64,000 nt of DNA from contig JAQBEH010000096.1 of the NCBI GenBank assembly GCA_032124015.1, forward strand, positions 11,027 through 75,026. The letters are read 5' to 3'. The notes below the pieces were generated by a model that saw nothing but the letters and a program-made list of their open reading frames with translations, had not been told where the DNA came from and made no database searches. Numbering within the stretch: the first letter of the stretch is position 1; each line of letters starts with the position of its first letter. Positions 18,966 through 62,413 of the stretch are shown here, in pieces. Both the position numbers and the translations under genes were made by a program. Source of the stretch: Acidobacteriota bacterium. GTDB lineage: Bacteria > Acidobacteriota > Polarisedimenticolia > Polarisedimenticolales > DASRJG01.

Positions 18966-19042
18966 CGTTGATTCTCCTCAAAAGTGGTAGGCATCTGTAT
19001 GCTATCGCCTCGAGGGTGGGCGATCAAGCGTGGGCTGAGGAC

Positions 19043-35200: not shown

Positions 35201-38550
<3,350 letters not shown>

Positions 38551-38566
38551 CCCTACCCTTTCCGCG

Positions 38567-40784: not shown

Positions 40785-42521
40785 ATGAGTGGCACGAGAC
40801 GTTCCTCCGCGCGCGTCGCGGCGATGATGGCTTTTCTCATCGTGCTTACGGCCGGTATCGCCTCCGTGACCTGGGCCGACGATCTCAAGCTCCCCGGCTT
40901 CCCTGGGACGTCCGAGCCGGACGCCGCAGCGACCGCAGAGGAACTGGCTCCGCAGGCGGGGCACGATGGGGTCCCCGTTCTCGTCGCCGGACAGGAGATC
41001 TACCGGATGCGGGCCGCGTTGGGCCCGTTTTCCGTCGAGGAACGGGCCGCGACCGCCGCGAGGCGGATCAAACGCCTCGTCGCCGCGCCGAGCTTCGACC
41101 CCGCAATGCTCGCCGTGCAGGAGCAGGACGGGCTAACGCGCATCGCGTACGGCAATGAGGTGCTCTTCACCGTTCTTCACGAGGATCTGTCGGACCTCGA
41201 GCGCGAAGCGGGCCATCCCGCCGCAGATGATATCGCGGAACGCCTCCGTACAGCCATCCGCATCGACCGCGTTGCGCGCACCCCGAGGCGGCTCGCCATC
41301 TCGTTTGCGCTAACGCTGCTCGTGTTCGGCGTCGCGGTCCTGCTCTTTCGCCTGCTCTCCAAAATGGCACGACGAGCACGCGCCTATATCGCGGCGGCGA
41401 AGGACACCCGGCTTCACGGCGTTCAAATCCGCGGCCTCGAGCTGATCTCGGGCGACACGATGGTTACGATTGTGCAGCGCGCTGCGAGCCTCATCCAGGC
41501 AGCGATCGTGATCTTCCTCGTCTACGTCGCCGCGTCGGTCGTCCTTTCGCTGTTCCCTTGGACCGCGCCCTACGTTCGCTCCTCCGTCGGCTTCGTGCTC
41601 AAGGCGGTGTGGGACGTGGTCGGCGCGATCTTCGGCAGTATCCCGAACCTGTTCATGATCGGGCTCCTGCTCTTCGTGATCCGTTACATCACTCGCTTCG
41701 TGAACTTCCTCTTCGATGCGATCGGACGGGGCGTGCTCGTGCTCCCCGGCTTCCACCCGGAGCTCGCCGCGCCGACGAATCAGATCGTTCGCTGGCTCGT
41801 CTGGGCTCTGGGACTCGTGGTGATTTTTCCGTACCTCCCGGGGAGCGGCTCGCCCGCGTTCCAAGGCGTCAGCGTGTTCATCGGACTCTTGGTGTCGTTC
41901 GGCTCGTCGGGGGCGATCGGCAACGTCGTCTCCGGTTTGGTGCTGACCTTTTCGCGCTCGTTTGCCGTGGGCGACCGCGTCAAGATCGGCGACACCGTCG
42001 GCGACGTGGTCTCCCACACTCTTTTGTCCACCAAGCTCATCACCATCAAGAACGAGGAAGTGACGATTCCGAACTCGTTGATCCTCAACAATCACATCAT
42101 CAACTACTCGGAGCTCTCCGCGGAAAAAGGCCTCATCCTCCACACGACGGTCACGATCGGTTACGACGTGCCGTGGAGACAGGTGCACGAGCTGCTGATT
42201 GCGGCCGCGCGAGCGTCGGACGGCATCATCGCGACACCGGAACCCTTCGTGTTCCAAACGAGCTTGGACGACTTCTACGTGAGCTACCAGATCAACGCCC
42301 ACACGAAAGAGCCCCAGCGTATGGCCGCGATCTACAGCGACCTTCACCAGAACATTCAGGACCGTTTCTTCGACGCGGGGGTCGAGATCATGTCGCCTCA
42401 CTACGGAAGCCTGCGGGACGGGAACGAGGTTGCGATCCCGCCGGACAAGAGACCGGCCTCCTACAGGGCGCCGTCTTTTAGGGTGCGTCGCACCGATGGC
42501 GGCGGTGAAACGGCTCCATGA
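40785..42521 (+). CDS. Mechanosensitive channel family protein (MscS-like core with a large N-terminal periplasmic/TM extension)
   Basis: In frame in track ORF 40752..42521. ATG 40785 is preceded by GAGGTG. Signal peptide. IGNVVSGLVLTFSRSFAVGDRVKIGD is MscS core sequence. Confidence 0.8.
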   Translation: MSGTRRSSARVAAMMAFLIVLTAGIASVTWADDLKLPGFPGTSEPDAAATAEELAPQAGHDGVPVLVAGQEIYRMRAALGPFSVEERAATAARRIKRLVAAPSFDPAMLAVQEQDGLTRIAYGNEVLFTVLHEDLSDLEREAGHPAADDIAERLRTAIRIDRVARTPRRLAISFALTLLVFGVAVLLFRLLSKMARRARAYIAAAKDTRLHGVQIRGLELISGDTMVTIVQRAASLIQAAIVIFLVYVAASVVLSLFPWTAPYVRSSVGFVLKAVWDVVGAIFGSIPNLFMIGLLLFVIRYITRFVNFLFDAIGRGVLVLPGFHPELAAPTNQIVRWLVWALGLVVIFPYLPGSGSPAFQGVSVFIGLLVSFGSSGAIGNVVSGLVLTFSRSFAVGDRVKIGDTVGDVVSHTLLSTKLITIKNEEVTIPNSLILNNHIINYSELSAEKGLILHTTVTIGYDVPWRQVHELLIAAARASDGIIATPEPFVFQTSLDDFYVSYQINAHTKEPQRMAAIYSDLHQNIQDRFFDAGVEIMSPHYGSLRDGNEVAIPPDKRPASYRAPSFRVRRTDGGGETAP

Positions 42522-44767: not shown

Positions 44768-44777
44768 GGAGACAGCC

Positions 44778-45479
44778 ATGGAAGAGCAGCAAGCCGTCGG
44801 TGCGGTCCTCGGACCGTTTCACGAGATGTGGGTCAAGGTCGTGGGTTATCTCCCGAGCCTCGCGGCCGGCCTGCTGATCCTGATCTTCGGGTTCATCGTC
44901 TGCTGGCTCGTCCAGCGACTGACCGCGCGCGTGATGCTCCTGCTACGCCTCGACCGGGCCTTCCGCAACTTCCGTTGGGCGCAGGGCTTGGAGCATGCGG
45001 ACACGAAGTACGCGCTGGCCCGGATGGCGGGCAACCTCGTTGCGGTGCTCCTCTTTTTCGTGTTCCTCGAAAACGCCTTCGTCGTGTGGGGCCTCGACGT
45101 CCTCGGCCAACTGATCGGCCGCCTCGTGTTCTATCTCCCGCACCTCGTCGTCGGCGGCCTCGTCATGGCCATCGGCAGCGTGGTCGTGGCGTTGGTGTCG
45201 GACCGCGTGCGCGCGGGGCTCGCCGTCGAGGGATTCGAGCGTGCGGGCCTGGTCGCGCGCCTGACGCGGTGGGCCCTCATGGTGGTCGTTACCGCTTTCG
45301 CTCTCGAGGAGTTAGGCATCGCGCCGCACACGGTTCAAGCGGCGGTGAAGATCGGCCTCGGAACCCTGGGTATCGTCGCCGCCCTCGCCGTGGGCCTCGG
45401 GAGCAAGGACGCGATTGCGGCGATGTGGGCCTCGATCCTCGACAATCGTAAAACCGACAGCGGGGAGAAGCCAACCTGA
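44778..45479 (+). CDS. Integral membrane protein with repeated conserved TM-helix units (the type often associated with MscS-like channels)
   Basis: Track ORF, 233 aa. Four or five hydrophobic helices in a repeated pattern. No catalytic motif recognised. Confidence 0.6.
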
Positions 45480-45502
45480 AACTCTTCGAGATCTTTGCCG
45501 GT

Positions 45503-46711
45503 GTGACGACGCTGACTGCCCTGTTCGGGTGGTTCAACTATCGCTCCGTGCGCCTCCCGAACACGATCGGCGTGATGGTGATCTCGCTCGCGTTTTCTCT
45601 GGCGCTCGTCGTGTTCGGCCGGTTCGGGAACGGCATCGAGGAGCCGATGCGTCAGCTGCTCGTTGCCGTGGATTTCGACGAGGTGCTGCTGCACGGGATG
45701 CTCGGGGCGCTGCTGTTCGCGGGGGCGCTCCACATCGACCTCGGGGACCTGTCCGAGCAGAAGTGGGTGATCGGGATTCTCGCCACGTGCGGCGTTTTGG
45801 TATCGACCGTGGTCGTGGGCGGGTTGACGTACGTCATTTTCAGGATGCTCTCGACCGAACTCCCGTTCGTCTACTGCCTCCTGTTCGGCGCACTGATCTC
45901 TCCCACGGATCCGATCGCGGTCGGGGCGATCCTGAGGGACGTGGGTCTTCCGAAATCCCTGTTGATCAAGATCTCGGGCGAATCGCTGTTCAACGACGGC
46001 ATCGGCGTCGTGGTTTTCGTATCGGTTTTGGAGCTGGCGCTCCAGGGGCACGACGTCTCCGCAAGCAGCATTGCCGGCCTTTTCGCCATCGAGGTTCTGG
46101 GCGGAATCGCGTACGGCGCGATCCTGGGGTACGCCGTTTACCGGATGCTCAAGAGCGTGAACAACTACCAGGTGGAGATCCTCCTGACCCTCGCGCTGGT
46201 CACCGGCGGTTACGCGGTGGCCAATCGCATCGGGATCTCGGGGCCGCTCGCCATGGTCGTCGCGGGGCTCCTCATCGGAAACCAAGGGCGCGCCTTCGCG
46301 ATGTCCGACCGCACACGCGCGCGGCTGGACGATTTCTGGGAGTTGGTCGACGACTTTATGAACGCGGTGCTGTTCGTCCTGATCGGGGTCGAGATGCTGG
46401 TCGTCGAGTTCTCGGTGCCGGCGTTGGTGGCCGGTCTGGCCGCAATTCCCATCGTGCTGGCCGCGCGCTGGATCAGCGTCGCGATCCCCATCACCGTGAT
46501 GAGACGCTTCCGGAGGTTCAGCCCGGGCGCCGTTCGTATCTTCACGTGGACCGGTCTGCGCGGCGCGATCTCGGTCGCGCTCGCCCTCTCGCTGCCCCCC
46601 GGCCCTTCGCGCGACCCCATCATCACGATGACCTACATCGTCGTCATCTTCTCGATCGCGGTGCAGGGGTTGACCGCTGGACGGGTGGCGCGGTATTTCG
46701 CGCGCGGCTAG
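45503..46711 (+). CDS. Na+/H+ antiporter, CPA1 (NhaP-type)
   Basis: Track ORF, 402 aa, GTG start. [13 protein letters not shown] and [13 protein letters not shown] are CPA1 motifs. The frame is open from 45452, and a CTG at 45476 overlaps the upstream stop (CTGA), so the true N-terminus may be 9 aa longer. Confidence 0.85.
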
Positions 46712-46722
46712 CTCCGTCCGGG

Positions 46723-46755
46723 CAAAAAAAATGGCCGGCGCCTGAGCGCCGGCCG
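46723..46755 (-). terminator. Rho-independent terminator for the minus-strand 46775..47071 gene; its position between convergent genes may also serve the plus-strand antiporter gene
   Basis: GGCCGGCGC-CTGA-GCGCCGGCC hairpin (46732-46753). On the minus strand it is followed by a run of eight T (A8 at 46723-46730 on plus). Confidence 0.65.
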
Positions 46756-46774
46756 GAAAATGATTCGCTGCCGA

Positions 46775-47071
46775 TCAGGCGCGCGGCATGGTGACCACGC
46801 GGTCGTAGATGTCGACTCTCGGCATTCCTTCGAGCATCGGCGTCAGTTTCTTCAGGACCTCGGGGTAGGTCTTGAGGTTGTAGGCGTCCGCCGCCGCCTT
46901 GTCGTTCCACAGAGTGAAGCCCACTCCCTTCCGGTCGTGGAGCATGAGCGTCTGCGAGACGAGTCCTTTTTCCGATTTGAACATCGGGGCGATCTCGGTG
47001 GTGAAAACGCGGTTGAACTCGTCGACTTGTCCGTCTTTGATCGTGAAATGTACGTTGCGGGCGAAACCCAT
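46775..47071 (-). CDS. Small dimeric alpha+beta-barrel (ABM/antibiotic-biosynthesis-monooxygenase-like) protein
   Basis: Track ORF, 98 aa. Size and pattern (...VHFTIKDGQVDEF...GFTLWNDKAAADAY...) fit the ABM fold. A terminator follows. Confidence 0.55.
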   Translation of the reverse strand: MGFARNVHFTIKDGQVDEFNRVFTTEIAPMFKSEKGLVSQTLMLHDRKGVGFTLWNDKAAADAYNLKTYPEVLKKLTPMLEGMPRVDIYDRVVTMPRA

Positions 47072-47243
47072 GGGGTACTCCGTTTCTCCCTCGCTAGGTG
47101 GGACCTTCCGGCCGGCTCGTCTCGAGCAAGGAATCCGAGATCAAAACCTGTACTGCATCGGCCTTCATGGCGATTCAATGACTGATTGACGTAAATATAT
47201 ATCAGTCAAGGAGTTATGTCAAGCCCCCCGGAAGAGCCGAGCG

Positions 47244-48140
47244 CTAATTTGCGTGGAGCCGCACCACCAGAACCGAACATGGAGCGGCTCGCACGACGGC
47301 CTCGGCGACGCTTCCCAAGAGCATGCGGCGCATCCCCGTGCGACCCCGCGTTCCGACGACGATCAGATCGGCACGCATGTGCTCGGCGATACGCACGAGG
47401 TTCGCCGCGGCGGGACCGACGGTGACCTGCGTATCCCCGTCGATCCCGGCGCCGGCCAACGCCGCGTCGAGGCTCTTTTGCGCCGCCTCTTCGTTGGCGC
47501 GCTGGAAGTCGGCCAGTTGTACGGAATAGTCGCCCAGCGCGCCCCCGAACACGTCGGTCGAAATACCCGGCAGCTCCACGCTGTGGACGGCCGTCACGCG
47601 GCCGTGTGTGCGTTTGGCTTCTTCAGCCGCGGCGGCGAGCGCCGGAAGCGCGGGGTCGGAAAAATCGGTGCCCACGACGATTTTGCCCGTCCCCGGCCGC
47701 GCGCGGGCGACGAGGACCGGACAGTGGGCGTAACGCGCGACGCTCATCGCCATGTTGCCGATGAGCATGCGGGCGATCCCCGTGGCGCCAAAGCTTCCCA
47801 CAACGATCCGGTCGGCCTTCCAGTCCTCGGCAACGCGCACGATTCCCGCGGACGGAGACCCCTCTTCGATAAACGTCTCGAACGTTCCGGTTGTCCTGCC
47901 GGTGACCTGGCGCACGCGTTCCGCGACGGCATCGGCCACCCTCTTCCTCGCCTCGGGCACATTGAGGACTTCGTCGCTGCCCCGCTGCGGGAAGAGAGGG
48001 TGGACGAAGACCTCGCGGGGCACGATGTGGCAGACCGCAAGCGCGACCTTGTCGGTGCTCGCCAATTCATGAGCCTGCCTGAGGGCCTCGTCGGCGAATT
48101 CGCTCAGATCCGTTGCCACCAGTACTCGTCGTAGTGTCAT
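47244..48140 (-). CDS. Tandem-domain universal stress protein
   Basis: Track ORF, 298 aa. RRVLVATDLSEFADEAL..., ...IVVGSFGATG... and ...IVVGTRGRTG... are two USP repeats. Confidence 0.85.
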   Translation of the reverse strand: MTLRRVLVATDLSEFADEALRQAHELASTDKVALAVCHIVPREVFVHPLFPQRGSDEVLNVPEARKRVADAVAERVRQVTGRTTGTFETFIEEGSPSAGIVRVAEDWKADRIVVGSFGATGIARMLIGNMAMSVARYAHCPVLVARARPGTGKIVVGTDFSDPALPALAAAAEEAKRTHGRVTAVHSVELPGISTDVFGGALGDYSVQLADFQRANEEAAQKSLDAALAGAGIDGDTQVTVGPAAANLVRIAEHMRADLIVVGTRGRTGMRRMLLGSVAEAVVRAAPCSVLVVRLHAN

Positions 48141-48221
48141 GCTCGCTCCCTTCGCCCGTGGATCGGCATCTTACGCCGCTTGGACGAGCCCGGCGAATCC
48201 GCGGCACCCCAAAAGCGGCGA

Positions 48222-49457
48222 TCACTCCCTGGATCGGCCCAATCGGGCGATCTCGTTCGTCGTGACGTCGACGATCTCCTCGCCAGTTTCGACCGGCGCG
48301 CCCGGACTCAACAGCGGGACGAGACTCGTGGCCGCGCCATAGACGACGAGACCGCCGTACACCCATGGCGCGACGTCAAATCGCTCGCGCAGCACGTCGG
48401 CCACCGCGAACGTGAATACGGTCGTCGGCACGAGGAACAGCCCGACATTGGCGGCCTCCCGCCACGCCTCGCCCAGCCGCATTCTGCGGTGCAACAGCGT
48501 CGGGACGACGCGCAGCGGAACTGCCACGACGAGAAGCGCGGCCGCCAGCAGCGCGGCTTCGGGCGTCAACGCGCCCTTCGGCAGGATCAGACCCACTCGG
48601 AAGAAGAAGCACGGAACAAAGAACGCCGAAAAGAACCGGAAGGCGGTGAGCGCCTCGGAGACCGATCCGGTCTCGTAACGCTTGCGGTCGAGCCAGTCGA
48701 GATATCGGCGCGCCACGAGCCCGACGAGAAATGCGCCCGCGAGATAGTGCACGCCGACGTGATGCGTGGTGTAGGCGGCCAGCAACGCGACGATCAACAG
48801 GAATGGGAACTCCGTGCGCGGCGCCCACGGGAGGATGAGCCGGTGAAAGAAGACGACGAGCAGCGGCACGGCGAGAATCAGACCCGAGACGGCGGCAAGC
48901 CCGATGGCGAGATCGCGCGGCGCCGACGCGTTCGCGAACACGAGGACCATCCCGATCGCCATCAACTCGCCGGCGATCGCCTTGTGCTTGATCCACGCGG
49001 CGAGGTCCGGACGCTGCGGTCGCGCCTCGAGCAGCGACATGATGTACCCGACCGACGGCGACATGATCGCCGCCCCCACGAGCACCGCGACGCCGGTGTC
49101 GAGACCGAGCGCGATGCCGACCGCGGTTGCGATCGCGACCAGGGCCACTTGAAGTCCGAGATGGACCACGAGGGTTGCGCCGCGGCTGCGCAGCTCGTCG
49201 AGCTCGACCTCGAGCCCCGCGAACAGGAACAGGGCCGAGATGCCGAATCCCGACAACCCTTTCAGCATCGCGTTCGGCTCGATCCAACCGAACACGGCGG
49301 GGCCGACGATGATCCCGAGCGCGAACTCGGTCAGAGGCGCGGGGATCCGGAAACGGAGCAGCGCCTTGGGCAGGAAGAACAGCCCCGCGACCAGGGCGAG
49401 CAATTCGAGATAGGGTTCCACCGGACCGGCGATTCTACGCCACCACGCGATGAACAC
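48222..49457 (-). CDS. Cation:proton antiporter (CPA2/Kef-like membrane domain only)
   Basis: Track ORF, 411 aa. Polytopic membrane protein. GIIVGPAVFGW and LFLFAGLEVELDEL are typical of a Na_H_exchanger fold. Confidence 0.8.
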   Translation of the reverse strand: MFIAWWRRIAGPVEPYLELLALVAGLFFLPKALLRFRIPAPLTEFALGIIVGPAVFGWIEPNAMLKGLSGFGISALFLFAGLEVELDELRSRGATLVVHLGLQVALVAIATAVGIALGLDTGVAVLVGAAIMSPSVGYIMSLLEARPQRPDLAAWIKHKAIAGELMAIGMVLVFANASAPRDLAIGLAAVSGLILAVPLLVVFFHRLILPWAPRTEFPFLLIVALLAAYTTHHVGVHYLAGAFLVGLVARRYLDWLDRKRYETGSVSEALTAFRFFSAFFVPCFFFRVGLILPKGALTPEAALLAAALLVVAVPLRVVPTLLHRRMRLGEAWREAANVGLFLVPTTVFTFAVADVLRERFDVAPWVYGGLVVYGAATSLVPLLSPGAPVETGEEIVDVTTNEIARLGRSRE

Positions 49458-49510
49458 TTCCCTAATCCGGAAACGAATTCGAGGTTAGCTCGGGATGGTA
49501 AGCTGAGGGC

Positions 49511-51793
49511 GTGGGTACTCATCCTCGCGTCCTGCTCGTTTCGAACCGGCTTCCGGTGACGGTGGCAATCCGGGACGGCCGGGCGACCGTCAAGCCGTCC
49601 ACGGGCGGCCTCGCGACCGGCCTGACCGGACCCCACCGGGAGTCCGGCGGCCTGTGGTTCGGCTGGCCCGGGGACATCTCCGAAGCCACTCCGGATCAGC
49701 GCACCGAGATCGAAGCTCGATTGGCTTCGGACCGGCTGGTCCCCATCGATCTGGATCGCGAGGATCTCGAGCGCTACTACCACGGGCTCGCGAACGGCGT
49801 CTTGTGGCCGCTCTTCCACTACCACCAAGACTCGATTCCGTTCGACAGGGAAGACTGGAACCGGTACGTCGCCGTGAACGAACGATTCGCGCAGGCGGTG
49901 GCGGCCCATCACCAGCCGGGCGATCTGGTCTGGGTTCACGACTATCACTTGGCGCTCGTCCCCGCGATGCTCCGCGCACGGATTCCCGGCGCGCGCATCG
50001 GATTTTTCCTGCACATTCCGTTTCCCTCCTCCGAGGTGTTCCGCATCTTCCCCTGGCGCAAATCGCTGCTCTGGGGACTGCTCGGGGCCGACCTGATCGG
50101 GTTCCATACGCTCGGCTACATGCGCCATTTCCTCTCGAGTCTCACGCACGTCTTGGGGCTCGACACCGATCTCGACGAGGTGCTTCTCGAAAGTCGCGTG
50201 GTCCGGTGCGGCGCGTTCCCGATGGGGATCGACAACGCCGCCTTCCTCAGGCTTTCCGCCTCCGCACCCGTACGCCGCGAATCCGACAAGCTGCGGCGAG
50301 CGGCGGCGGGCGTTCGCATGGTGCTGGGCGTCGACCGCCTGGACTACACGAAGGGAATCCCCCGCCGCCTCGCGGCCTTCGAGCGTCTGCTCGAATCGTC
50401 GCCGGAGTATCGCGGACACGTCCAATTGCTCCAAATCGCGGCGCCGTCGCGTGAAAAGACTCCGGCCTACGCGTCCTTCAAGCGCCGGCTGGACGAACAG
50501 GTCGGCCGGATCAACGGCCGCTTCGGGACGCCGTCCTGGACACCGATCCGCTACGTGTACCGGGGATACGGCGTCGAGCGCGTGGTGGCGTTCTACCGCG
50601 CCGCGGACGTCATGCTCGTCACGCCGCTGCGTGACGGGATGAACCTCGTCGCGAAAGAATTCGTCGCCAGCCGCGACGACCTCGACGGCGTGCTGGTGAT
50701 TAGCGAGTTCGCGGGGGCGTCCGAGGAACTCGCGGAGGCCATTCAGATCAACCCCTACGATATCGACGGCGCCGCCGCCGCGATCCGCGCGGCGCTCGAG
50801 ATGGACGGGGATGAGCGCTCCCGGCGCATGGGCCAGCTTCGGGACCGAGTCCTCCGCCGGGACGTCCACCAGTGGGTCATGGATTTCCTGGACCGGCTGG
50901 CGGTCGATCGCCGCCGCGTCGCCGAGCGAGAGTTGACGCCGATTCCGTCGGACCTCCTCGCGGCCGCCGAAAGGCTCCTCGTCTTCCTCGACTACGACGG
51001 CACGCTCGTCCCTCTCGTCGACGACCCCGGCGCGGCGGTCCTCGATCCCGTGCTCATCGAGATCCTCGGCCGTCTCGCGCGGCGCCCTGGGGTCGACGTC
51101 GAGATCGTGAGCGGGCGGACCCCGGAATGGCTTGCGCGCATGTTTGCGACCCTGCCGATGGGATTGCACGCGGAGCACGGTGCGTGGAGCCGGAGTCCAG
51201 GCTCGTCCGAGTGGCGGAGGAACGTCCCGGAGTCGGCCGGATTCCAGGGCTTGCTCGACCGCGTGCGCCCCGTCCTCGCCTCGTTCGCCCGCTCGCATCC
51301 CGGGTCGTTCGTCGAGGAAAAAACGACCGGACTCGCGCTGCACTACCGTGCGGCCCATTCCGCGGACGCGGAACCGCAGGCCTGGGAATTGCGGCGCCAA
51401 CTTCTCGACCTGTTGTCAAACGCTCCGGTCTCGGTGCTCGCGGGGAACAACGTCATCGAGATTCGTCCTCAGGGGCTGCACAAGGGAACGATCGTTCCGC
51501 AAGTGCTCGCGCAGGCCGCAGCCGGCGCCAAAATCCTCGCAATCGGCGACGATCGCACCGACGAGGACCTCTTCGCGGCGCTCCCCGAAAACGCGATCAC
51601 GGTTCGGGTCGGCGGCGGTCCGACGCGCGCCGGCTGGAGGCTCAAGGGACCGGACGACGTGAGAGCCTTGCTCGCGGAGTTGGCGGGATGGGGCGAATTC
51701 GGCCGAGTTCGGTCCGACTCCAGGAGGCGTGACGATGAGCTACGACGAAAAGACCGCGGGGCGAATTCGAAAGCTCCTGTCGACGCATCCTGA
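49511..51793 (+). CDS. otsA: Bifunctional trehalose-6-phosphate synthase / trehalose-6-phosphate phosphatase fusion
   Basis: Track ORF, 760 aa, GTG start. [23 protein letters not shown] and [15 protein letters not shown] are OtsA (GT20) motifs. [10 protein letters not shown] and [10 protein letters not shown] are HAD OtsB motifs in the C-terminal third. Confidence 0.9.
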
Positions 51794-53598: not shown

Positions 53599-53790
53599 CT
53601 ATTTTTCCGTGGGAGTCTCTGGGGCGGCGGCACGCTGCACGGGCTCAGGCCGAACGCTGTTGCTCCCACATTGCGGGCACGTCCGTTCGGCTACCCGCTT
53701 CGGATCGTAATCGTCCACCTGGAATCGATGGTCGCCCCGAAGGCACTGGAACCACTTCTTGTCTCCCATCGTTCTCACGTCCCCCTTCAT
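53599..53790 (-). CDS. Small zinc-ribbon protein (56-63 aa)
   Basis: C-terminal part of track ORF 53599..54075. ATG 53790 overlaps the hdrA stop (ATGA). An alternative ATG 53769 is preceded by AAGGGGGA. FQCLRGDH...CPQCGS is a zinc-ribbon-like pattern. Confidence 0.55.
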   Translation of the reverse strand: MKGDVRTMGDKKWFQCLRGDHRFQVDDYDPKRVAERTCPQCGSNSVRPEPVQRAAAPETPTEK

Positions 53791-56249
53791 GCGCTCGGGA
53801 CCGCGGTGGCTGCCACCGTGGCGCGCCCCGGGCCGGATTCCTGCGCTTCGAGCACCCGCATCGTCGATTCCACTTCCTCGCGGGACACCTTGCGCAGCAC
53901 GCCGTCGAGCTCGGTCATCACCCGGACGAACTTCTGCCCCTCCGCGGCGCTGATGTACTCGAGCTGGAGCCGCTGGGGCCGGACGCCGAGCTGATCCATC
54001 CGGCTCCACATCTTCTCCACCCGCCGCTGAGTCCACGTCACCGCCTTGATGTAGTGGCAATCGGAGAAGTGGCACCCCGAAACGAGCACCAGCGGAGCGC
54101 CCTTACGGAAAGCGTGCCAGATGAATTTTTCGTCCACACGCCCGCTGCACATCGTTCGGATCAGGCGGACCGACGCCGGGTACTGCAGCCGGGACGTTCC
54201 CGCATTGTCCCCCCCCGCGTACGAGCACCAGTTGCAAGCGAACGCGACGATCTTGTCCATCGGCTCATCGGCGAGGATGGCGTCGATCTGCGCCAGGATC
54301 TGCTGGTCGGAAAAATGCCGCATCGTGATCGCGTCGACCGAGCACTCGGCCGCGCAGGTCCCGCACCCGGCGCAGGCCGCCTCGACGAATACGGGGTACC
54401 GATGTTCCTTCTTTTTCGGCTCCGAGATCGCGTTGTAGGGGCACACGCGCGCGCATCGCCCGCAGAAGTTGCACAGCGTCTCGTCGAATTGCGCGGTGAT
54501 CGCCTCGACGCGGACTTGGCCGGCGGAGAGCAAGTTGCCCGCGCGGGACGCCGCCGCACCGGCCTGCGTCACGGAATCCTTGATGTCCTTCGGCGCTTCC
54601 ACGCATCCCGAAAAGAACACTCCGCGCGTCGGCGCATCGACGGGGCTCAGCTTCGGATGAGCCTCCATCACGAAACCGTCCGAGGTGTGCGAGAGGGTCA
54701 GGAGCTTCTCGACGTCGGGGCTGCCGTTCGCGGCGACGCGGGGTACGAGACCGACCGCCAGCACGAGCATGTCGAGCCGGTGCTTTTCCATGCGTCCCGT
54801 CGTCGTGTTCTCGACGTGCACCACGAGGTCGTGCGAGGCGGGGTCTTCTTCCACCAGGCCCGGGAGTCCCCGAACGTATCGCGCCCCGGACTCCCGGCTC
54901 CGCCGGTAGAGGTCTTCGAATCCCTTCCCGGATGCCCGAATGTCCGTGTAGAAAACCGTGGAGCTCGCTTCCGGATAGTGCTCGGCGATTTGCAGCGTCT
55001 GTTTGATCGTGTTCATGCAGCAGATGTTCGAGCAGTAGGGCACGCCCTCCGACGCGCACCGCGACCCAACGCATTGCACGAACCCGATCGACCGCGGTTC
55101 GCGCTGATCCGAAAGGCGCAACAGATGACCGCCCGTCGGTCCCCCGGCGCAGATCAACCTCTCGAACTCCATGCTGGTGACGACGTTGGGAAAGCGGGTC
55201 CAACCGTACTCGTCGTTCCGTCGCGGGTCGTACACGTCCATGCCGGTGGCGACGACGATCGCCCCGACCGGAATGTCCAGAATCTCCGGAGTCATGTCGA
55301 AGTCGATGCACTTCTTGTCGCAGACCTCGAGACATCGACCGCAGGTGAGTGGCTTGTTGCCGAGGCAATTCTCCATGTCCAGCGCGTACGCCGAGGGGAC
55401 GGCCTGAGGAAACGGCGAGTAGATCGCCTTGCGGGAAGAAAGGCCCTGCTGGTACTCGTCGGGGACGACGACGGGGCAGACCTTGGCGCATTCTCCGCAC
55501 GAGGTGCAATCCGATTGCGAGACGTAGCGCGGGTTGCGGCGAACGCGCACCCTGAAGTTCCCGACGAAACCGCCGACGTCTTCGACTTCAGAACCGACCA
55601 GGAGCTTGATCCGCGGATGTCGACCGACATCCATCATCTTTGGGCCGAGAATTCATATCGAGCAGTCCATCGTCGGGTAGGTCTTGTCCAACGTGGACAT
55701 GATCCCGCCGATGGACGCCTGCCTCTCCACCAGGTAGACCTGGTGCCTGGCCGCGGCCAGCTCCAGCGCGGCCTCGATCCCGGCGACCCCGCCTCCGATC
55801 ACCATCACCGCATCGGTGACCGGGAACGTCTTTTCGTCCTGCGCCTCCAGGAGCCTCGCGCGCTCGACGGCGCTGTGAACCAGGTCTCTCGCCTTTCGCG
55901 TCGCGGCGGCGCGGTCTCCCATGTGAACCCACGAGCATTGCTCGCGGATGTTCGCCATCTCCATCAGGTAGGGGTTGAGTCCCGCCTGGGCCACGCACCG
56001 GCGAAAGGTCGGCTCGTGGATCTTGGGCGTGCACGACGCCACCACGACCCGGTCGAGGTCGTGCTCGGCAATGGCCTTCTTGATCTCGTTCTGCCCGGGA
56101 TCGGCGCAGGTGTACCGGTTGCGGACGACGACGGCGACGCCCGGCAGCGTTTTCGCGAAGCGGGCCACGTCCTCGGTGTCGACGGTGCCGGCGATGTTCA
56201 GGCCGCAGTCGCAGACGAACACGCCGATGCGTTGGGCTGGTGAGGTCAT
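53787..56249 (-). CDS. hdrA: Heterodisulfide reductase subunit A-like flavoprotein fused to an MvhD-like domain, with an in-frame TGA (55653-55655) read as selenocysteine
   Basis: Track ORFs 55653..56384 and 53787..55637 are in one frame, separated only by TGA. The joined sequence is ...LDKTYPTMDCSI-U-ILGPKMMDVGRHPRIKL. ATG 56249 is preceded by GGGAGGAG and overlaps the upstream stop (ATGA). N-terminal VFVCDCG Fe-S motif, GGGVAGIEAA FAD motif, internal ferredoxin Cys clusters. The C-terminal FACNWCSYAGGD...VSGCHFSDCHY is an MvhD/FlpD-type domain. Confidence 0.85.
55608..55638 (-). other. Candidate bacterial SECIS hairpin downstream of the hdrA UGA
   Basis: In mRNA sense the sequence is GGAUGUC-GGUC-GACAUCC (55632 down to 55615), a perfect 7-bp stem with a 4-nt GGUC loop starting 20 nt after the UGA. 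Flanking GAU/AUC could extend the stem across an internal loop. Confidence 0.5.
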
Positions 56250-57406
56250 CGTGCTCCTCCCGGATCCGCGAGAAGGCTCGCGGCGAGAACCGTGAAGTCC
56301 AAAACCTCGATCGACGGCCCCCCGACCCCTGCGCGCCGGGCTTCGGCTTGTGCGCAGGAGAAATGGATGAGGCACTTGGGGCATGCCGTGACGAGCGTCG
56401 ACGCCCCGGTGGCCGACGCCTCGGCGAGCCGGTCGTACTGGATCGCCCGGCTGGAGGCGTCGCAGTGGATGAAACCGCTCGTCCCGCAGCAGGCCGCGTC
56501 TCGTCCGGTCCGGGGCATCTCGACGAGCGTCGCGTTCGGGAGGGCCTCGAGCACGCGGCGTGGAGCGTCGACGATTCCCATGTGCCGGCTGAGCCGGCAG
56601 GGGTCTTGGTAGGTGAGCGTCCGGTCGCCTCCGGTTCTAAACGTCAAGGCGGAGCGGGCGACCTGCTCCGCGACGAACTCCGAGACGTGCTCCACACGCG
56701 GGGCGTACCCTCCTGCGACTTCCGGATAGTCGAGCTTCCATGTCCGACAGCACTCGGCGCACGCGGTCACGATGCGCTTCACGCCGCGGTCGGCGAACGC
56801 CTTCGCGTTCGCCTGCGCCAGCGCGGTGAACGCTTCGCGTTCGCCGTTCCAGAAGAGGTCGTGCCCGCAGCATCGTTCCTCGGGGACCAGCACGGGACGG
56901 ATCCCCGCGCCGTTGAGCAACCGGATGGCCGACCGCGCGATCTCCAGAGGCCGCACGCCGAGCTCGGGTCCGAAGTACGCGTCGAAGAGCGGAAGGCAGC
57001 CGACGAACAGCCCGACCTCACCTTCCTCGGCGATCTCGAGGCCGTCGCCGAGCGAGGACACGTCCCTCGGAGGCGGCGGCTCCACGGCCATCGAGCGGGC
57101 CGCGTGCTGGAACACGCCTCCGTGCGGCGCCGGCGGATGCGATTCGAGAGGGATCTTCTCGCGCAGGCCCCGAATGAAATCCGTGAAGCGAACGCCCTGG
57201 GGACAACGAACCTCGCAGGAGCCGCAGGTCAAGCACCGCCCGACAGCTTCGCCGTGATCGTGGAACTCGTCCTCGAGTCCTTCGGCCACGATGAGGCGGG
57301 CGGAAAACCGCCCCGGGCTCGCGAGCGGGCACATGCTCGTGCATTTTCCGCAGGCCAGACAGCGCGCGGCACCCGTGGAACGCCTCAGTTCCGCATTACG
57401 GCTCAT
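56246..57406 (-). CDS. HdrC/HdrB fusion-type iron-sulfur protein (two 4Fe-4S motifs plus two CCG domains)
   Basis: In frame in track ORF 56246..58093. ATG 57406 overlaps the upstream stop (ATGA). CLACGKCTSMCP and CLTCGSCEVRCP resemble HdrC. EERCCGHD and DAACCGTSG are CCG domains as in HdrB. Confidence 0.85.
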   Translation of the reverse strand: MSRNAELRRSTGAARCLACGKCTSMCPLASPGRFSARLIVAEGLEDEFHDHGEAVGRCLTCGSCEVRCPQGVRFTDFIRGLREKIPLESHPPAPHGGVFQHAARSMAVEPPPPRDVSSLGDGLEIAEEGEVGLFVGCLPLFDAYFGPELGVRPLEIARSAIRLLNGAGIRPVLVPEERCCGHDLFWNGEREAFTALAQANAKAFADRGVKRIVTACAECCRTWKLDYPEVAGGYAPRVEHVSEFVAEQVARSALTFRTGGDRTLTYQDPCRLSRHMGIVDAPRRVLEALPNATLVEMPRTGRDAACCGTSGFIHCDASSRAIQYDRLAEASATGASTLVTACPKCLIHFSCAQAEARRAGVGGPSIEVLDFTVLAASLLADPGGAR

Positions 57407-59781
57407 GACGCGCCCCCCGTTCCGACGAACGTCGCGACGGGGTCCTCCAACCGGTCGAAAGCCCTTCCGGCGGACCAGTCCGTGACGACGCGGTCGGCGC
57501 CCGATCCCAGCAGCTTCAACAGGGCTTGCGCTCGCGCGACTTCCGCCGCAGCGAGCCTGGCGCCCGGTCCGAACCGACAGCGGTCTTCGGCGCACCCCGC
57601 CACCAGCACGTGCGCGCCGCCTCGCCCGGCCAGGTCGAGCAGCATGCCGGCGTCCACCTGTCCGACGCAGCGCAGTCGGATCACCTCGACGCGGATTCCG
57701 GATCGTTCGAGGGCCGGCTCGAGCGCCCCCGCCCGCCGCTGGCAGGCGAGAACGACGTGTCTCGTCGCGCTCCCGTCGCGCGGGGCCAAGGCATCGGCGA
57801 TCCTGCGTCCCCACCATTCCGGAGACAGAGCGCTCGAACGAGCCGCGTCGGTCGAACAGACCGACGTGCAGAGGCTGCAGCCGCGGCACAGGGCGGGCTC
57901 GATGCGCGCCCGCTTGCGTCCGTCCGCGCCGTCCACCAAGGAGACCGCGTGGAACGGGCAGACCTCGACGCACTTGGCGCAGCCCCGGCACCGATCCTCG
58001 ACGACACGGTTCCGCACCGGGAGGAGCTCGAGCGCGAGCGCCTCGGAGAGATCGACGCTGGAAGCGACCGGGCCGCACTGCGGGAGAAGCCACGCGGGGG
58101 CCGGGCGTTCGACGTCGAGCGACAGCGCCACGGTCGCCGGCACGCGGAGCAACGCGGTCGACGCGTTCCGTTCGCCATTGACGGTGCGGATCATCACGTG
58201 CCGGCGCTCACAGGACGAAGCACAGGTCCGGCACTCGCCGCACGGTCCGCACCGCAGGCAGCGCCGCGCCTCGGCGACGGCCTCGGCGGCGGTGTACGCC
58301 TGCTCGACCTCGGCGAACTTTTTCCCCCGGGACGGTGCGATCGTCGCGGGACGGATCCGCGTCGCCTCGACGGGGGTCGCGTCGGGGATCTCGTACTCTT
58401 CCGCGGCGCGACCCTCCGGCCGTTCCTCGCGGATCGCCGCGCGGCCTTCCGTGAGGAACCGGCGGACCGATTCGGCGGCGCGATGCCCGGCCGCGATCGC
58501 TTCGATGATGGTCGCCGGACCGGTCACCATGTCCCCCGCCGCGAACACGCGGCCGAGACGCGTCAGCGACGTCCGTTCGTCGATCTCGATCCGGTCGTCG
58601 GGGCACGCCTTCGCGCGTACGTTCGACGGGAGGAAGGAGAAGTCGACCCGCTGCCCCACCGCGGCGAGAACGCCGTCGGCTGAGATCTTGAATTCGGTTC
58701 CGGGGATCACGATCGGCTCGCGCCGGCCCTGGGCATCCACCGGGCCGAGGCCGACCTTCTTGCATTCGAGGCCGACCAGCCGGCCGCCGTCGGTGAGCAC
58801 CTGCGACGGTGCGACCAGGTATCGGAAGCGAATCCCCTCCGCCTCGGCGGCTTCGACCTCGTCGGCTCCGGCGAGGAGCTCGTCCTGGGACCGCCTATAG
58901 AGGATCTCCACGCGGGAGGCGCCGAGGCGTCGCGCGGTGCGCGCGGCCTCGATCGCCGTCGAGCCGCCGCCGATGACCAGGACGTGCCGCCCCGCGGTGC
59001 GCAGATCGCCCCCGTTGACCCGACGCAGGAAAGCGAGCGCGTCCTGGACGCCGCGGCATCTCTCTTCACCGGGGACGCCGAGCTTGCGCCCCACCTGCGC
59101 GCCCACGGCGAGAACGACTGCTTCGTATCCGCGACCGCGCAGCGCGTCGAGCTCGACGTCCGTCCCGAGCCGCGTGCCGGTCCGGATCTCCACTCCCGCG
59201 CGCTCGAGCACGCCGATCTCCGCGGCGAGGACTTCGCGCGGGAGGCGGTAGGCCGCGATCCCGTAGCGGAGCATCCCACCCGGTTCCGCCTCCGCCTCGA
59301 ACACGGTGACGGGGAATCCGGCGAGGCGAAGGTCGTACGCCACCGTGAGGCCGGCGGGGCCGGAGCCGATCACCGCTACGGCCGGCCCGCGCGCGTCTCC
59401 CGAAGGCGGCGAGGGACGCGGCAGCTCGCGCTCGAGGTCGGCGACGAACCGCTTGAGGGAACGGATGGACACCGGTTCGTCCACGCGCCCGCGCTTGCAC
59501 GCCAACTCGCAGGGATGGCTGCAAACTCGGCCGCAAATCCCGGGGAGCGGACAGCGCCGCCTCACGACCTCGAGCGCCTCGGCGAAGCGGTGCTCGGCGA
59601 CCAGCGAGACGTACGCCTTGACCTGGACCCCGGCGGGGCAGGCCTGCGTGCACGGGGCCGGGACGATACGGCGGACCGGAATCGCGGAGGGTTGAAGGGA
59701 GGGCGCCCACAAACCCCTTCCGGCCAGGTCTTCGAAGCGGCTCACGGAAGCCGAGAGAGTCGAGGTGGTCTGTGCCTTCAT
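57403..59781 (-). CDS. NfnB/GltD-like NAD(P)H:flavin oxidoreductase fused to a 2x[4Fe-4S] ferredoxin module and a C-terminal MvhD-like domain
   Basis: Track ORF, 792 aa. ATG overlaps the upstream stop (ATGA). N-terminal Cys clusters (CPAGV, CPLPGICGRVCSHPCELAC). VAVIGSGPAGLTVAYDL and VLVIGGGSTAIEAA are dinucleotide folds. CRGCAKCVEVCP and CRGCSLCTSVC are ferredoxin motifs. The tail HVVLACQRRAG...LRCVGQVD...VAGCAEDRCRF is MvhD-like. Confidence 0.85.
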   Translation of the reverse strand: MKAQTTSTLSASVSRFEDLAGRGLWAPSLQPSAIPVRRIVPAPCTQACPAGVQVKAYVSLVAEHRFAEALEVVRRRCPLPGICGRVCSHPCELACKRGRVDEPVSIRSLKRFVADLERELPRPSPPSGDARGPAVAVIGSGPAGLTVAYDLRLAGFPVTVFEAEAEPGGMLRYGIAAYRLPREVLAAEIGVLERAGVEIRTGTRLGTDVELDALRGRGYEAVVLAVGAQVGRKLGVPGEERCRGVQDALAFLRRVNGGDLRTAGRHVLVIGGGSTAIEAARTARRLGASRVEILYRRSQDELLAGADEVEAAEAEGIRFRYLVAPSQVLTDGGRLVGLECKKVGLGPVDAQGRREPIVIPGTEFKISADGVLAAVGQRVDFSFLPSNVRAKACPDDRIEIDERTSLTRLGRVFAAGDMVTGPATIIEAIAAGHRAAESVRRFLTEGRAAIREERPEGRAAEEYEIPDATPVEATRIRPATIAPSRGKKFAEVEQAYTAAEAVAEARRCLRCGPCGECRTCASSCERRHVMIRTVNGERNASTALLRVPATVALSLDVERPAPAWLLPQCGPVASSVDLSEALALELLPVRNRVVEDRCRGCAKCVEVCPFHAVSLVDGADGRKRARIEPALCRGCSLCTSVCSTDAARSSALSPEWWGRRIADALAPRDGSATRHVVLACQRRAGALEPALERSGIRVEVIRLRCVGQVDAGMLLDLAGRGGAHVLVAGCAEDRCRFGPGARLAAAEVARAQALLKLLGSGADRVVTDWSAGRAFDRLEDPVATFVGTGGAS

Positions 59782-60347
59782 GGAGTCGCCTCCACCGCCT
59801 CGCCGGTGCGCGCGATCGACCGGCCGAGCTCGAGTCCCCGCGTGAACGCCGCGAGGTTCAACTCCTCCGTCCCGCTCGGCACCGACTCACGGATCGCTTC
59901 ACGCATCGCGTCCGGCGAGACGACATCCGTGGCCGCGGTGAACACTCCCGCCATGACCATGTTCGCAGCGATCCTCTTACCCAACTTCTCGGCGGCAAGT
60001 GTGGCGGGGACGGAGACGACCCGCACGCGGTCCACGTCGCCGGGAGTGACGAGCGACTCGTCGACGATGACGATTCCGCCGTCCCGCACCTCTCCAACGA
60101 ACGTCTGGTACGCGTCCTGGGACATCGCGACGAGAATGTCGGTGCCGCGGACGTACGGGTACATCACCTGCTCGTCCGAGACGACGAGCTGAGCGCTGCA
60201 CGCGCTCCCCCGCGCCTCGGGACCGAAGGCCTGATTGAGCGTCGCGTGCCGCCCGTCGACGACCGCGGCCGCCCGGCCGACCACGTAGGCGCAGAGGATC
60301 ATCCCCTGACCGCCCAAGCCCGAAAACCGCATCTCGGTGGTCGCCAC
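59778..60347 (-). CDS. 2-oxoacid:ferredoxin oxidoreductase, gamma subunit
   Basis: Track ORF, 189 aa, GTG start (alternative ATG 60333). RFSGLGGQGMIL is a typical gamma-subunit N-terminus. Confidence 0.85.
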   Translation of the reverse strand: MATTEMRFSGLGGQGMILCAYVVGRAAAVVDGRHATLNQAFGPEARGSACSAQLVVSDEQVMYPYVRGTDILVAMSQDAYQTFVGEVRDGGIVIVDESLVTPGDVDRVRVVSVPATLAAEKLGKRIAANMVMAGVFTAATDVVSPDAMREAIRESVPSGTEELNLAAFTRGLELGRSIARTGEAVEATP

Positions 60348-60362
60348 GGCCGTCGCTCCCTT

Positions 60363-61259
60363 CTACCGATCCAGCAGCGCCCGCCGCTCGGAGCGGTCGG
60401 TTCCCGCCGCGTCGATCCGCGTATAGGCCTCGCCCAACGCCGCCTTCATGCTCTCGTCGATCTTGTCCTGGAGGGTCGGCTTCTCGATGTCGACGAAGGT
60501 CCCGATCGTGATCCGCCCTTTGAAGCCGATGTCTACCGTCCCCGGATCGGCGCCGTTGCGCACGTCGGTCATGTCGCGGAGCATCCGCATCCAGTCGAGG
60601 CCGGAACCGAGCTTGTTGCGGCGCGTGTAAAGGGTCGGACAGGGACTGATGACCTCGACGAACGCGAAGCCGCGCTTGGCGAGGGCGGCCTCCATCGAGC
60701 GGATCAGCTGCCGCACGTGGAGGGTCGTCCAGCGGGCGACGTACACGGCGCCGCAACTCGCCGCAAGAGCGGGGAGGCTGAACGGGTGCTCGAAGGTTCC
60801 GTAGGGGGTCGTCGGGCTCACGGCACCCAGCGGCGTCGTCGGGGCGACCTGGCCTCCGGTCATCGCGTAGTTGAAGTTGTTGACGCAGATCACGGTGAGA
60901 TCCACGTTCCGCCGGGCGGCGTGAATGAAATGGTTGCCGCCGATCGAGATGAGGTCGCCGTCTCCGCTGAACACCACGACCTTGAGCCCGGGATTCGCCA
61001 GCTTGAGGCCGGTGGCGAACGGGATGGCGCGGCCGTGGGTCGTGTGGAAGGAATCGAGCCGGACGTAGCCGGCCACGCGACCGGTGCAGCCGATCCCGGA
61101 AACGACCGCGACCTTGTCGAGGTCCAGCTTCGATCGGACGAGCGCCTCGGTGAAGCTCGACAACGCGGTGCCGATCCCGCACTCCGGGCACCAGATGTGC
61201 GGGAGGCGGTCGGAACGGAGGATGGCCTCCCCGGGATGACCGTGCGGCGTTGCGTTCAT
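60363..61259 (-). CDS. 2-oxoacid:ferredoxin oxidoreductase, beta (TPP-binding) subunit
   Basis: In frame in track ORF 60363..61877. ATG 61259 overlaps the alpha-subunit stop (ATGA). WCPECGIG, SGIGCTG and GDGDLISIGGNHFIHAARRN are beta-subunit motifs. Confidence 0.9.
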   Translation of the reverse strand: MNATPHGHPGEAILRSDRLPHIWCPECGIGTALSSFTEALVRSKLDLDKVAVVSGIGCTGRVAGYVRLDSFHTTHGRAIPFATGLKLANPGLKVVVFSGDGDLISIGGNHFIHAARRNVDLTVICVNNFNYAMTGGQVAPTTPLGAVSPTTPYGTFEHPFSLPALAASCGAVYVARWTTLHVRQLIRSMEAALAKRGFAFVEVISPCPTLYTRRNKLGSGLDWMRMLRDMTDVRNGADPGTVDIGFKGRITIGTFVDIEKPTLQDKIDESMKAALGEAYTRIDAAGTDRSERRALLDR

Positions 61260-62413
61260 CCGTTCACCTCGACGATGGCGGCGTAAATACTCCGAGGGTC
61301 GTGCACCCAGCCTCCGGCGTGAGGGACGTGGATCGTCCTCGCCCGCCCGCCGGCGCATCGCTCGACCTCGAGTGCGATCTGGCCGAGATTGATCTCGGGG
61401 ACCACGAAGCCACGGACGGAGCGCGCGAGCTCGGCGATCCGCGCTTCGGGAAACGGCCACAGGGTGATGAGGCGCAACTCTCCGACGGCGCGCCCCTCGG
61501 CTCGCGCCTGCTGAACCGCGGCGCGCGCCACCCGGGAGGTAATCCCGTACGAGACGACCACGACCTCGGCCCCTTCGATGTTCGATTCTTCGACGCGGAA
61601 GATGTCCGGCGCGTTGCGGCGGATCTTTTCGATCAGGCGCGGCACGAGGGCTTGCTGGGCGGCGGCGGTCATCGCCGGGTACCCCCGTTCGTCGTGCGTC
61701 AGCCCGGTGGTGTGGATCCTGTATCCCTGTCCTGCGGCCACCATCTCCGGGACCAGATCCGGCCCCGGACGATAGGGCCTGTACTCCTCCGGCGAAAGCG
61801 CGGTCATGCGGCGCGGAACGAGGTCGATGGCCTCGTACGACGGAACCACGACCTTTTCGGTCATGTGGCCGACGCACTCGTCCATCATCAGTAAGGTCGG
61901 GACGCGGTAGCGCTCGGACAGGTTGAACGCGTCAATCGTCAGGTCGAACGCTTCCTGAGGGGAGTTGGGCGACATCGCGATGATGGCGTAGTCGCCGTGC
62001 GAACCCCACCGCGCTTGCATGACGTCGGCCTGGCCGACCATCGTCGGGAGGCCGGTCGAGGGGCCGCCCCGCTGCACGTTCACGAGCACGCAGGGGACTT
62101 CCATCATGACGCCGAGACCGAGGTTTTCCATCATGAGAGAAAAACCGGGGCCCGACGTGCAGGTCATCGCCTTCGCTCCGCCCCACACGGCGCCGAGGAT
62201 CGCGGCCATGGCGGCCATCTCGTCCTCCATCTGGATGAAGACGCCGCCAACCCGGGGAAACCTCCGCGCGACCCGCTCGGCGATTTCGGTCGAGGGGGTG
62301 ATCGGATACCCGGCGAAGAACCGGCACCCCGCGACGACCGCGCCTTCGGCGCACGCGTGATCGCCGTCGAGGTAGTGGGCGCCCGTGAGCATGACCGACG
62401 GGTCAGGATTCAT
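61256..62413 (-). CDS. 2-oxoacid:ferredoxin oxidoreductase, alpha subunit
   Basis: Track ORF, 385 aa. FFAGYPITPSTEI and TSGPGFSLMMENLG are alpha-subunit motifs. Confidence 0.9.
   Translation of the reverse strand: MNPDPSVMLTGAHYLDGDHACAEGAVVAGCRFFAGYPITPSTEIAERVARRFPRVGGVFIQMEDEMAAMAAILGAVWGGAKAMTCTSGPGFSLMMENLGLGVMMEVPCVLVNVQRGGPSTGLPTMVGQADVMQARWGSHGDYAIIAMSPNSPQEAFDLTIDAFNLSERYRVPTLLMMDECVGHMTEKVVVPSYEAIDLVPRRMTALSPEEYRPYRPGPDLVPEMVAAGQGYRIHTTGLTHDERGYPAMTAAAQQALVPRLIEKIRRNAPDIFRVEESNIEGAEVVVVSYGITSRVARAAVQQARAEGRAVGELRLITLWPFPEARIAELARSVRGFVVPEINLGQIALEVERCAGGRARTIHVPHAGGWVHDPRSIYAAIVEVNG

Follow-up and report, generated by a model that had tools for sequence, protein, structure and literature searches.

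The window analysed here is a 64-kb stretch of DNA from an Acidobacteriota bacterium (contig JAQBEH010000096.1, positions 11,027 to 75,026), and its subject is a gene of the HdrA family that is interrupted by one in-frame TGA, with an RNA hairpin a short distance 3' of that codon. Translation of the minus strand from 56384 to 53787 gave 866 codons interrupted by one internal stop, around which the protein reads ...KTYPTMDCSI*ILGPKMMDVGRHP..., with the asterisk for the TGA. The start was read from gene calls in near-identical contigs and from the overlap with the neighbouring gene: translation most likely begins at ATG 56249, not at 56384, since this ATG shares the letters ATGA with the stop codon of the upstream gene and the N-terminal products called in related contigs (L001-L003 and L084) are 198 residues long. 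Between ATG 56249-56247 and the stop at 53789-53787, the TGA is the single interruption of 820 codons. We estimate a probability of about 0.9 that TGA 55655-55653 is the selenocysteine (Sec) codon of one 820-residue HdrA-MvhD flavo-iron-sulfur protein of the HdrA2 type; for the source organism itself, Sec insertion is a prediction from sequence.

An HdrA2-type gene with a conserved in-frame TGA

The joined protein matched FAD/Pyr_redox, Fer4 and C-terminal FlpD/MvhD domains in Pfam, the last of these (PF02662) at residues 667-787 with E=2.8e-44. Among structures in the PDB, HdrA (5ODC_A) aligned with residues 6-661 (E=2e-220) and MvhD (5ODC_D) with residues 665-781 (E=6e-36), and the NCBIfam HdrA2 model NF040770 scored 1119 bits, above its cut-off of 1100. 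The N-terminal iron-sulfur, flavin adenine dinucleotide (FAD)/thioredoxin reductase-like, inserted ferredoxin and C-terminal ferredoxin domains of HdrA were all covered, and the fused C-terminal MvhD/FlpD domain gives the protein the architecture of HdrA2. The UGA column was Cys in 116/116 full-length homologues from the protein collection, within the motif KTFPTMDCSIC(V/I)LGPK, and aligned with Cys197 of 5ODC_A, the residue with which HdrA ligates the N-terminal [4Fe-4S] cluster in the partner protomer (PMC9012536). By homology, residue 199 would be the corresponding ligand here. HdrA is an established selenoprotein family in bacteria and archaea (PMC1794560; PMC4989117), and archaeal Sec-HdrA proteins carry a single Sec at a canonical position near residue 200 (PMC4989117).

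A sequence-only reading of the window had joined the two HdrA open reading frames (ORFs) into one frame parted by the TGA alone, placed the UGA at a conserved Cys of a family with known selenoproteins in some methanogens and Deltaproteobacteria, and expected automatic callers to report two fragments. All of this was borne out, and gene callers output exactly such fragments, of 198 and ~616 residues, in the six contigs checked. Other in-frame TGA codons with open flanks of high third-position GC were also sought in the window; the four further candidates were each an ordinary gene end or an off-frame artefact.

The four closest database proteins (88-92% amino-acid identity) were all C-terminal fragments of ~615 residues. 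The same TGA was present in 3/3 fetched contigs of the closest relatives, among many synonymous differences: 36-52 synonymous and 13-16 non-synonymous changes were counted upstream of the TGA, and 69-105 synonymous and 24-35 non-synonymous changes downstream of it, an excess that places both halves under purifying selection. The exact C-terminal fragment occurred on 42 contigs, drawn from two NCBI metagenome-assembled genomes (MAGs; GCA_032127175.1 and GCA_032126555.1) and several sequencing runs, and the TGA and hairpin were identical in the three of these contigs that were checked, which excludes a sequencing error. One contig of GCA_032126555.1 (L086:388-1050) has an apparent indel 5' of the TGA, with the TGA and hairpin unchanged; the caller output there was a frameshifted 220-residue N-terminal product and an overlapping C-terminal fragment.

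More distant relatives were collected by a scan of GTDB at one genome per species, with KMMDVGRH among the seed peptides. This yielded 80 loci of 61-76% identity, the closest HdrA match being that of an Acidobacteriota MAG (74%), and the loci span more than 10 phyla (Acidobacteriota, Calditrichota, Zixibacteria, Ignavibacteria, KSB1, Eisenbacteria, Chloroflexota, Marinimicrobia, WOR-3, Fidelibacterota, Armatimonadota and Krumholzibacteriota). The 80 GTDB loci and three close contigs (83), plus the window, make up the related-loci set, which contains 82 distinct TGA-type sites (the window and 81 further) and 15 sites with TGT or TGC (Cys-type), at locus GC contents of 36-72%. Orthologues thus keep the UGA, the two flanking halves are under purifying selection, and the TGA-type and Cys-type genes are co-linear, so that the homologues are not truly split at this point. 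Because the GTDB scan had KMMDVGRH among its seeds, an independent metagenome scan was run with the pattern DC..I-TGA-ILGPK only, leaving the hairpin unconstrained. It recovered at least 118 distinct TGA sites on more than 100 contigs.

Two further observations concern these sites. Two TGA-type HdrA paralogues lie ~5-9 kb apart in eight loci (L009, L011, L012, L032, L033, L040, L042 and L044); they are of the types KTYPTMDCSI* and KTFP(S/T)MDC(A/S)I*, and each has its copy of the GGUC hairpin. The codon 5' of the UGA (55656-55658 in the window) is the otherwise rare Ile codon ATA at 78/82 sites of the related-loci set, including the 67%-GC window, and is a mixture of ATA, ATC and ATT in the metagenome set; the ATA may reflect a context effect on Sec insertion.

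Structure and conservation of the downstream hairpin

The sequence-only reading had also placed a perfect hairpin, GGAUGUC-GGUC-GACAUCC, 20 nucleotides (nt) 3' of the UGA with its loop at 27 nt, and had likened that loop to the apical loop of the selenocysteine insertion sequence (SECIS) of E. coli fdhF, spaced there by 18 nt. Its coordinates were correct (Table 1), and TGA, 18 nt and GGTC follow one another, at 99% identity or more, in 5413 E. coli records annotated as fdhF. The bacterial SECIS model of Zhang and Gladyshev (summarised in PMC13188914) calls for a loop of 3-9 nt on an upper stem of 4-16 bp, with G at loop positions 1 and 2 (typically G[G/U]), an apical loop lying 16-37 nt after the UGA, and a minimum free energy (MFE) of -7.5 kcal/mol or lower. 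The window hairpin falls within each of these ranges: a 4-nt loop closes a perfect 7-bp stem, the loop reads GGUC at every one of the 82 TGA sites in the related-loci set, the distance of 27 nt is identical across the aligned loci, and the MFE is -9.4 kcal/mol. The spacer between UGA and hairpin keeps its length at all loci while the third positions of its Leu, Gly, Pro and Lys codons are free to vary, and we therefore regard the spacing, and not the spacer sequence, as constrained. A lower stem, CGGCC/GGUCGG, appeared in the MFE fold of the window and was rejected, its downstream arm being unconserved and RNAalifold keeping the apical hairpin alone.

Taken as a single sequence, the hairpin is weakly beyond chance, a perfect 7-bp hairpin with SECIS-compatible geometry following ~1.7% of positions in the 67%-GC window; it is the comparative data that make the case. 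The hairpin is built from the codons AUG-GAU-GUC-GGU-CGA-CAU-CC of the conserved peptide MDVGRHP. Of the seven stem pairs, four set a synonymous third position opposite a protein-fixed second position, and the other three join protein-fixed positions, so the constraints of protein and RNA combine to leave almost no room for change and the hairpin is near-invariant. In the related-loci set, the TGA sites read GAT (82/82), GTC or GCC (75 and 7), GGT (82/82), CGA or CGG (63 and 19) and CAT (82/82) at codons +8 to +12 in turn, and GCC is paired with CGG in 7/7 cases. Third-position entropy is 0 at +8, +9, +10 and +12 against 1.2-1.9 bits in the flanks, and codons from +13 on vary freely.

The Cys-type orthologues behave differently at the same codons, with third-position entropies of 1.0-1.8 bits at +8, +9, +10 and +12, even though nine of the 15 encode the same peptide, MMDVGRH. 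Their codons are mixed (GAC/GAT, GTG/GTA/GTT, GGA/GGG/GGC, CGG/CGC/CGT/AGG and CAT/CAC), and the corresponding 18-mers, one excepted, have folding energies of -0.3 to -6.6 kcal/mol, so that a stable hairpin stands at 1/15 Cys-type sites and the element is specific to genes with TGA. The exception, a TGC-type gene at L083:8803-8850, has at the SECIS position a stable GGAUGUC-GGGC-GGCAUCC hairpin of -8.8 kcal/mol, which may be a SECIS remnant left by a Sec-to-Cys conversion, as has been described in other families (PMC1794560).

Pairing is preserved where the sequence does change. In the alignment of 82 loci, RNAalifold returned the apical hairpin as the sole consensus structure, with no other within 66 nt downstream, and 99.5% of stem cells were paired. 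The metagenome set, in which the hairpin had been left free, carried the GGUC hairpin or compensated variants of it at ~107/118 sites, with 91.8% of cells paired compared with 25-54% when the partner columns were slid. Two-sided changes occurred there at 3/7 stem pairs: GC to CG at the outermost pair 30-47 (4 cases), UA to GC at pair 33-44 (2 cases), and CG, UA and UG at pair 35-42 (55, 44 and 10 sites). The changes seen correspond to Val/Ala GUC>GCC with CGA>CGG, to Asp/Glu GAU>GAG with His/Ser CAU>UCU, and to the outermost G-C>C-G. The sequence-only reading had made its case depend on orthologous loci sharing a conserved structure and on homologues not being genuinely split; both hold, with compensatory changes in the stem, a hairpin mostly missing where the codon is TGT or TGC, and co-linear genes under purifying selection in both halves.

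Some ~11 AT-rich TGA-type sites of the metagenome set have no hairpin. Separately, we noted an AT-rich TGA-type clade, RTFPTDDCSI*ILGPKMLEANRHPNI, without a hairpin at the conserved position (L088, L124, L133, L137, L143, L157, L161, L189 and L201); it may be archaeal, with a SECIS in the 3' untranslated region (3'-UTR), or may use a different bacterial SECIS.

Proposed Sec insertion and the competing explanations

In the mechanism we propose, which follows the paradigm of E. coli fdhF, the in-frame hairpin would act as a bacterial SECIS. SelB-GTP-Sec-tRNASec would bind the GGUC apical loop and deliver Sec when UGA199 enters the ribosomal A site, and translation would proceed through the remaining 621 codons. 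As judged by homology, Sec199 would then take the place of Cys197 of the archaeal enzyme as a ligand of the N-terminal [4Fe-4S] cluster in the partner protomer.

Several results weigh against this proposal. No tRNA-Sec, selA, selB or selD was found in the 64-kb window by Pfam searches of ~37 ORFs, tRNA and Rfam scans, and tblastn with the SelA, SelB and SelD proteins of L044, an Ignavibacteriaceae MAG, and no tRNA gene of any kind was found in the window. Folding of a 71-nt segment with RNAfold gave no greater stability than that of shuffled sequences (z = 0.24), a comparison that is uninformative in DNA of 67% GC. Rfam returned no hit at gathering score in the window and no SECIS at E<=10 in 55450-55800, from which we conclude that no Rfam model covers the element. 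The loop lies 9 nt further from the UGA than that of fdhF (27 compared with 18 nt), and the perfect stem lacks a counterpart of the bulged U found in the upper stem of the E. coli fdhF SECIS. Finally, the conserved peptide forces much of the hairpin sequence, and sequence identity alone overstates the constraint on the RNA; what carries the argument is the behaviour of the synonymous positions and the difference between TGA and TGT/TGC genes.

With regard to the machinery, one carrier of the same TGA and hairpin is informative. Of the two TGA-type HdrA genes in L044, one is followed at 2.5-8 kb downstream by a tRNA-Sec and by genes for SelA, SelB and a NifS-SelD fusion (Table 1), the tRNA-Sec being called by ARAGORN and matched by Rfam RF01852 at 65.8 bits. 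When the L044 SelA, SelB and SelD proteins were searched by tblastn against the window and 86 loci, the sole match was L044 itself. SelA of L044 is split into two overlapping ORFs, probably by a frameshift error in assembly.

Hairpins 3' of stop codons can stimulate read-through in general, and the UGA might be decoded without Sec, by near-cognate Trp or Cys insertion, by Cys carried on tRNASec or through a UGA reassigned in this lineage, with the hairpin serving only as a stimulator. We consider this highly improbable, if the least improbable of the alternatives. UGA is an ordinary stop in the window, where it ends 17/27 confident genes, and a reassigned code is thereby ruled out; the phyla in which carriers of the interrupted gene occur, more than 10 in number, use the standard code. 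Within a known selenoprotein family, the codon occupies the canonical Sec/Cys site, the hairpin fits the model of a SelB-type SECIS with the GGUC loop of fdhF, and one carrier, L044, has the full sel set nearby.

It is a shade less probable still that the hairpin is a by-product of the MDVGRHP peptide, or that it serves mRNA stability or ribosome pausing for cofactor insertion, with recoding directed by another signal. The first and second codon positions of the peptide do fix 12/18 hairpin nucleotides, and the unremarkable z-score of the local fold and the AT-rich TGA-type sites without a hairpin agree with such a view. Against it, Cys-type orthologues have the same peptide and go without the hairpin, a stable one forming at one of the 15 Cys-type sites, and the synonymous third positions at +8, +9 and +12 and the loop U at +10 are invariant at 82/82 TGA sites whatever their GC content. 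Compensatory double changes preserve the pairing, and the 66 nt downstream hold no further conserved structure.

That the gene is broken or split, yielding a 198-residue polypeptide and one of ~616 residues from the ATG ATG six codons downstream, or is a pseudogene, is likewise a very slim prospect: the callers do output exactly these two products, in-frame ATG codons do follow at +6 and +7, and the Sec machinery was not seen in the window, but the ATG ATG is also present in unsplit Cys-type genes as a conserved Met-Met, the break would fall at a cluster-ligating Cys inside the FAD/thioredoxin reductase-like domain and delete the conserved ILGPK, well over a hundred loci across phyla hold the TGA at this codon with both halves under purifying selection, as no pseudogene would show, and the hairpin, mostly missing at Cys-type sites, would be left unexplained.

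Gene neighbourhood and relation to known systems

On the minus strand the cluster runs, in order, through the genes of a 2-oxoacid:ferredoxin oxidoreductase (OFOR), a GltD/NfnB-like flavoprotein, an HdrD-like protein, HdrA2-MvhD, a small ORF and a hemerythrin gene (Table 1). The HdrD/GlpC-like protein is probably the partner subunit of HdrA2; in NCBIfam it gave partial matches to TfrB, GlpC and HdrC, all below cut-off. The GltD/NfnB-like protein scored 498 bits against PRK12771, just under the cut-off of 516, and the oxidoreductase alpha subunit 555 bits against PRK08659, above the cut-off of 411; the beta subunit was assigned by synteny with the TPP_enzyme_C gene of L001. Near HdrA in the 80 GTDB loci, OFOR subunits were found at 44-52 or more loci, HdrD-like genes at 69 or more and Nfn-like genes at 22 or more, counts that are lower bounds as many contigs are short. 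The two upstream proteins (56246-59781) also gave partial matches to NCBIfam NF045663, 'diclust_near_Sec' (171 and 64 bits, cut-off 530), a name that suggests a family defined by its proximity to selenoprotein genes.

Table 1. Positions of the interrupted gene, its recoding elements and neighbouring genes in the window, and of the Sec genes in L044
Feature	Position	Strand	Basis or remarks
hdrA2-mvhD fusion, complete if UGA is read through	53787..56249	-	820 residues, Sec predicted at residue 199
UGA codon 199, predicted Sec codon	55655-55653	-	Cys column and TGA conservation
Spacer between UGA and hairpin	55633..55652	-	20 nt, codons Ile-Leu-Gly-Pro-Lys-Met-Met; length fixed in all loci
Candidate SECIS hairpin GGAUGUC-GGUC-GACAUCC	5' arm 55632-55626, loop 55625-55622, 3' arm 55621-55615	-	18 nt, MFE -9.4 kcal/mol
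HdrD/GlpC-like iron-sulfur protein, 2x[4Fe-4S] and CCG domains	56246..57406	-	386 residues; L001 call with Fer4_8 and CCG
GltD/NfnB-like NAD(P)H flavoprotein fused to Fer4 and MvhD	57403..59781	-	792 residues; Pfam Fer4_20, Pyr_redox_2, Fer4_7, FlpD
2-oxoacid:ferredoxin oxidoreductase, whole	59778..62413	-	Pfam POR_N/PFOR_II, POR
OFOR alpha subunit	61256-62413	-
OFOR beta subunit	60363-61259	-
OFOR gamma subunit	59778-60347	-
L044: Sec genes, whole	14976-20615	-
L044: tRNA-Sec	20522-20615	-
L044: SelA	19119-20607	-
L044: SelB	17173-19122	-
L044: NifS-SelD	14976-17180	-

Conservation, in different phyla, of the OFOR, Nfn-like, HdrD-like and HdrA2-MvhD genes as a cluster suggests an uncharacterised bifurcating module, and a search of the literature, which was not exhaustive, found no description of an OFOR-Hdr cluster. 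Elsewhere in the window, 35197-51793 holds a TreS-Mak fusion, GlgE, a trehalose-6-phosphate synthase/phosphatase fusion, mechanosensitive channels and Na+/H+ exchangers, which suggest trehalose/alpha-glucan metabolism and osmoadaptation and are unrelated to the Sec finding. The named matches of GlgE are 56-60% identical (Binatia, Planctomycetes, Vicinamibacterales/Vicinamibacteria, Nitrospirota and Chloroflexota), which indicates a poorly sampled lineage.

The gain from this work is mainly one of annotation. Callers are liable to break the gene into two fragments, both in this lineage and in related loci that number well over a hundred and come from more than 10 phyla, and metabolic reconstructions built on such calls lose an intact HdrA2-MvhD and under-count selenium dependence. 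A signature of TGA, 20 nt and GGATGYCGGTCGRCATCC would let pipelines rescue such genes. The element also offers a case of dual coding replicated in nature, a protein motif and a putative SECIS within the same 18 nt. A broader and speculative proposal, which we rate as unlikely when all of its parts are taken jointly, is that the 18-nt GGUC hairpin is a near-invariant, cross-phylum SECIS cassette, dual-coded with MDVGRHP and absent from Rfam, that marks a widespread and mis-annotated HdrA2-MvhD with a selenium-ligated [4Fe-4S] cluster, and that the cluster with OFOR, the HdrD-like protein and often a GltD/NfnB-like-MvhD protein is an undescribed electron-bifurcating module. If so, the module would link the oxidation of 2-oxoacids to NAD(P)H and a disulfide or other acceptor in many uncultured phyla.

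Parts of this picture are already established for the family and will not surprise a specialist, namely Sec at the canonical HdrA position and an in-frame bacterial SECIS. Sec-HdrA is known in Methanococcales and Methanopyrus and, among bacteria, in Syntrophobacter fumaroxidans, Syntrophus, Moorella and Carboxydothermus, for example (PMC1794560; PMC4989117; PMC2933860), and its genes are routinely mis-called as fragments (PMC12054007). The window protein resembles these proteins in family, in the single Sec that would replace a conserved Cys at the canonical position (~200, here 199) and in association or fusion with MvhD/VhuD. It differs from the archaeal forms, whose SECIS lies in the 3'-UTR, in having an in-frame hairpin of bacterial type. 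Published bacterial Sec-HdrA genes stand in glpC-hdrA-frhD-frhG-frhA hydrogenase operons, whereas the window gene, in a comparison made by description, stands beside OFOR, GltD/NfnB-like and HdrD-like genes.

The closest parallel for the recoding element is the SECIS of fdhF, with which the window hairpin shares its place within the ORF directly 3' of the UGA, an identical GGUC apical tetraloop and a presumed ligand in SelB. The minimal fdhF hairpin begins 11 nt after the UGA, compared with a spacer of 20 nt in the window, which has no conserved lower stem; the window element would act in the manner of fdhF as a different variant. In architecture the protein matches HdrA2 of the Methanosarcina acetivorans type (NF040770), HdrA with a C-terminal MvhD; that protein has Cys at the site and separate HdrB2 and HdrC2 partners, whereas here Sec is predicted at residue 199 and the neighbour is a fused HdrD/GlpC-like protein. 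The N-terminal cluster cysteines of the HdrABC-MvhAGD complex of Methanothermococcus thermolithotrophicus (5ODC) are conserved as well, but, unlike in that system, the window gene is adjoined by neither hydrogenase nor HdrB/C genes and lies instead in a cluster with OFOR.

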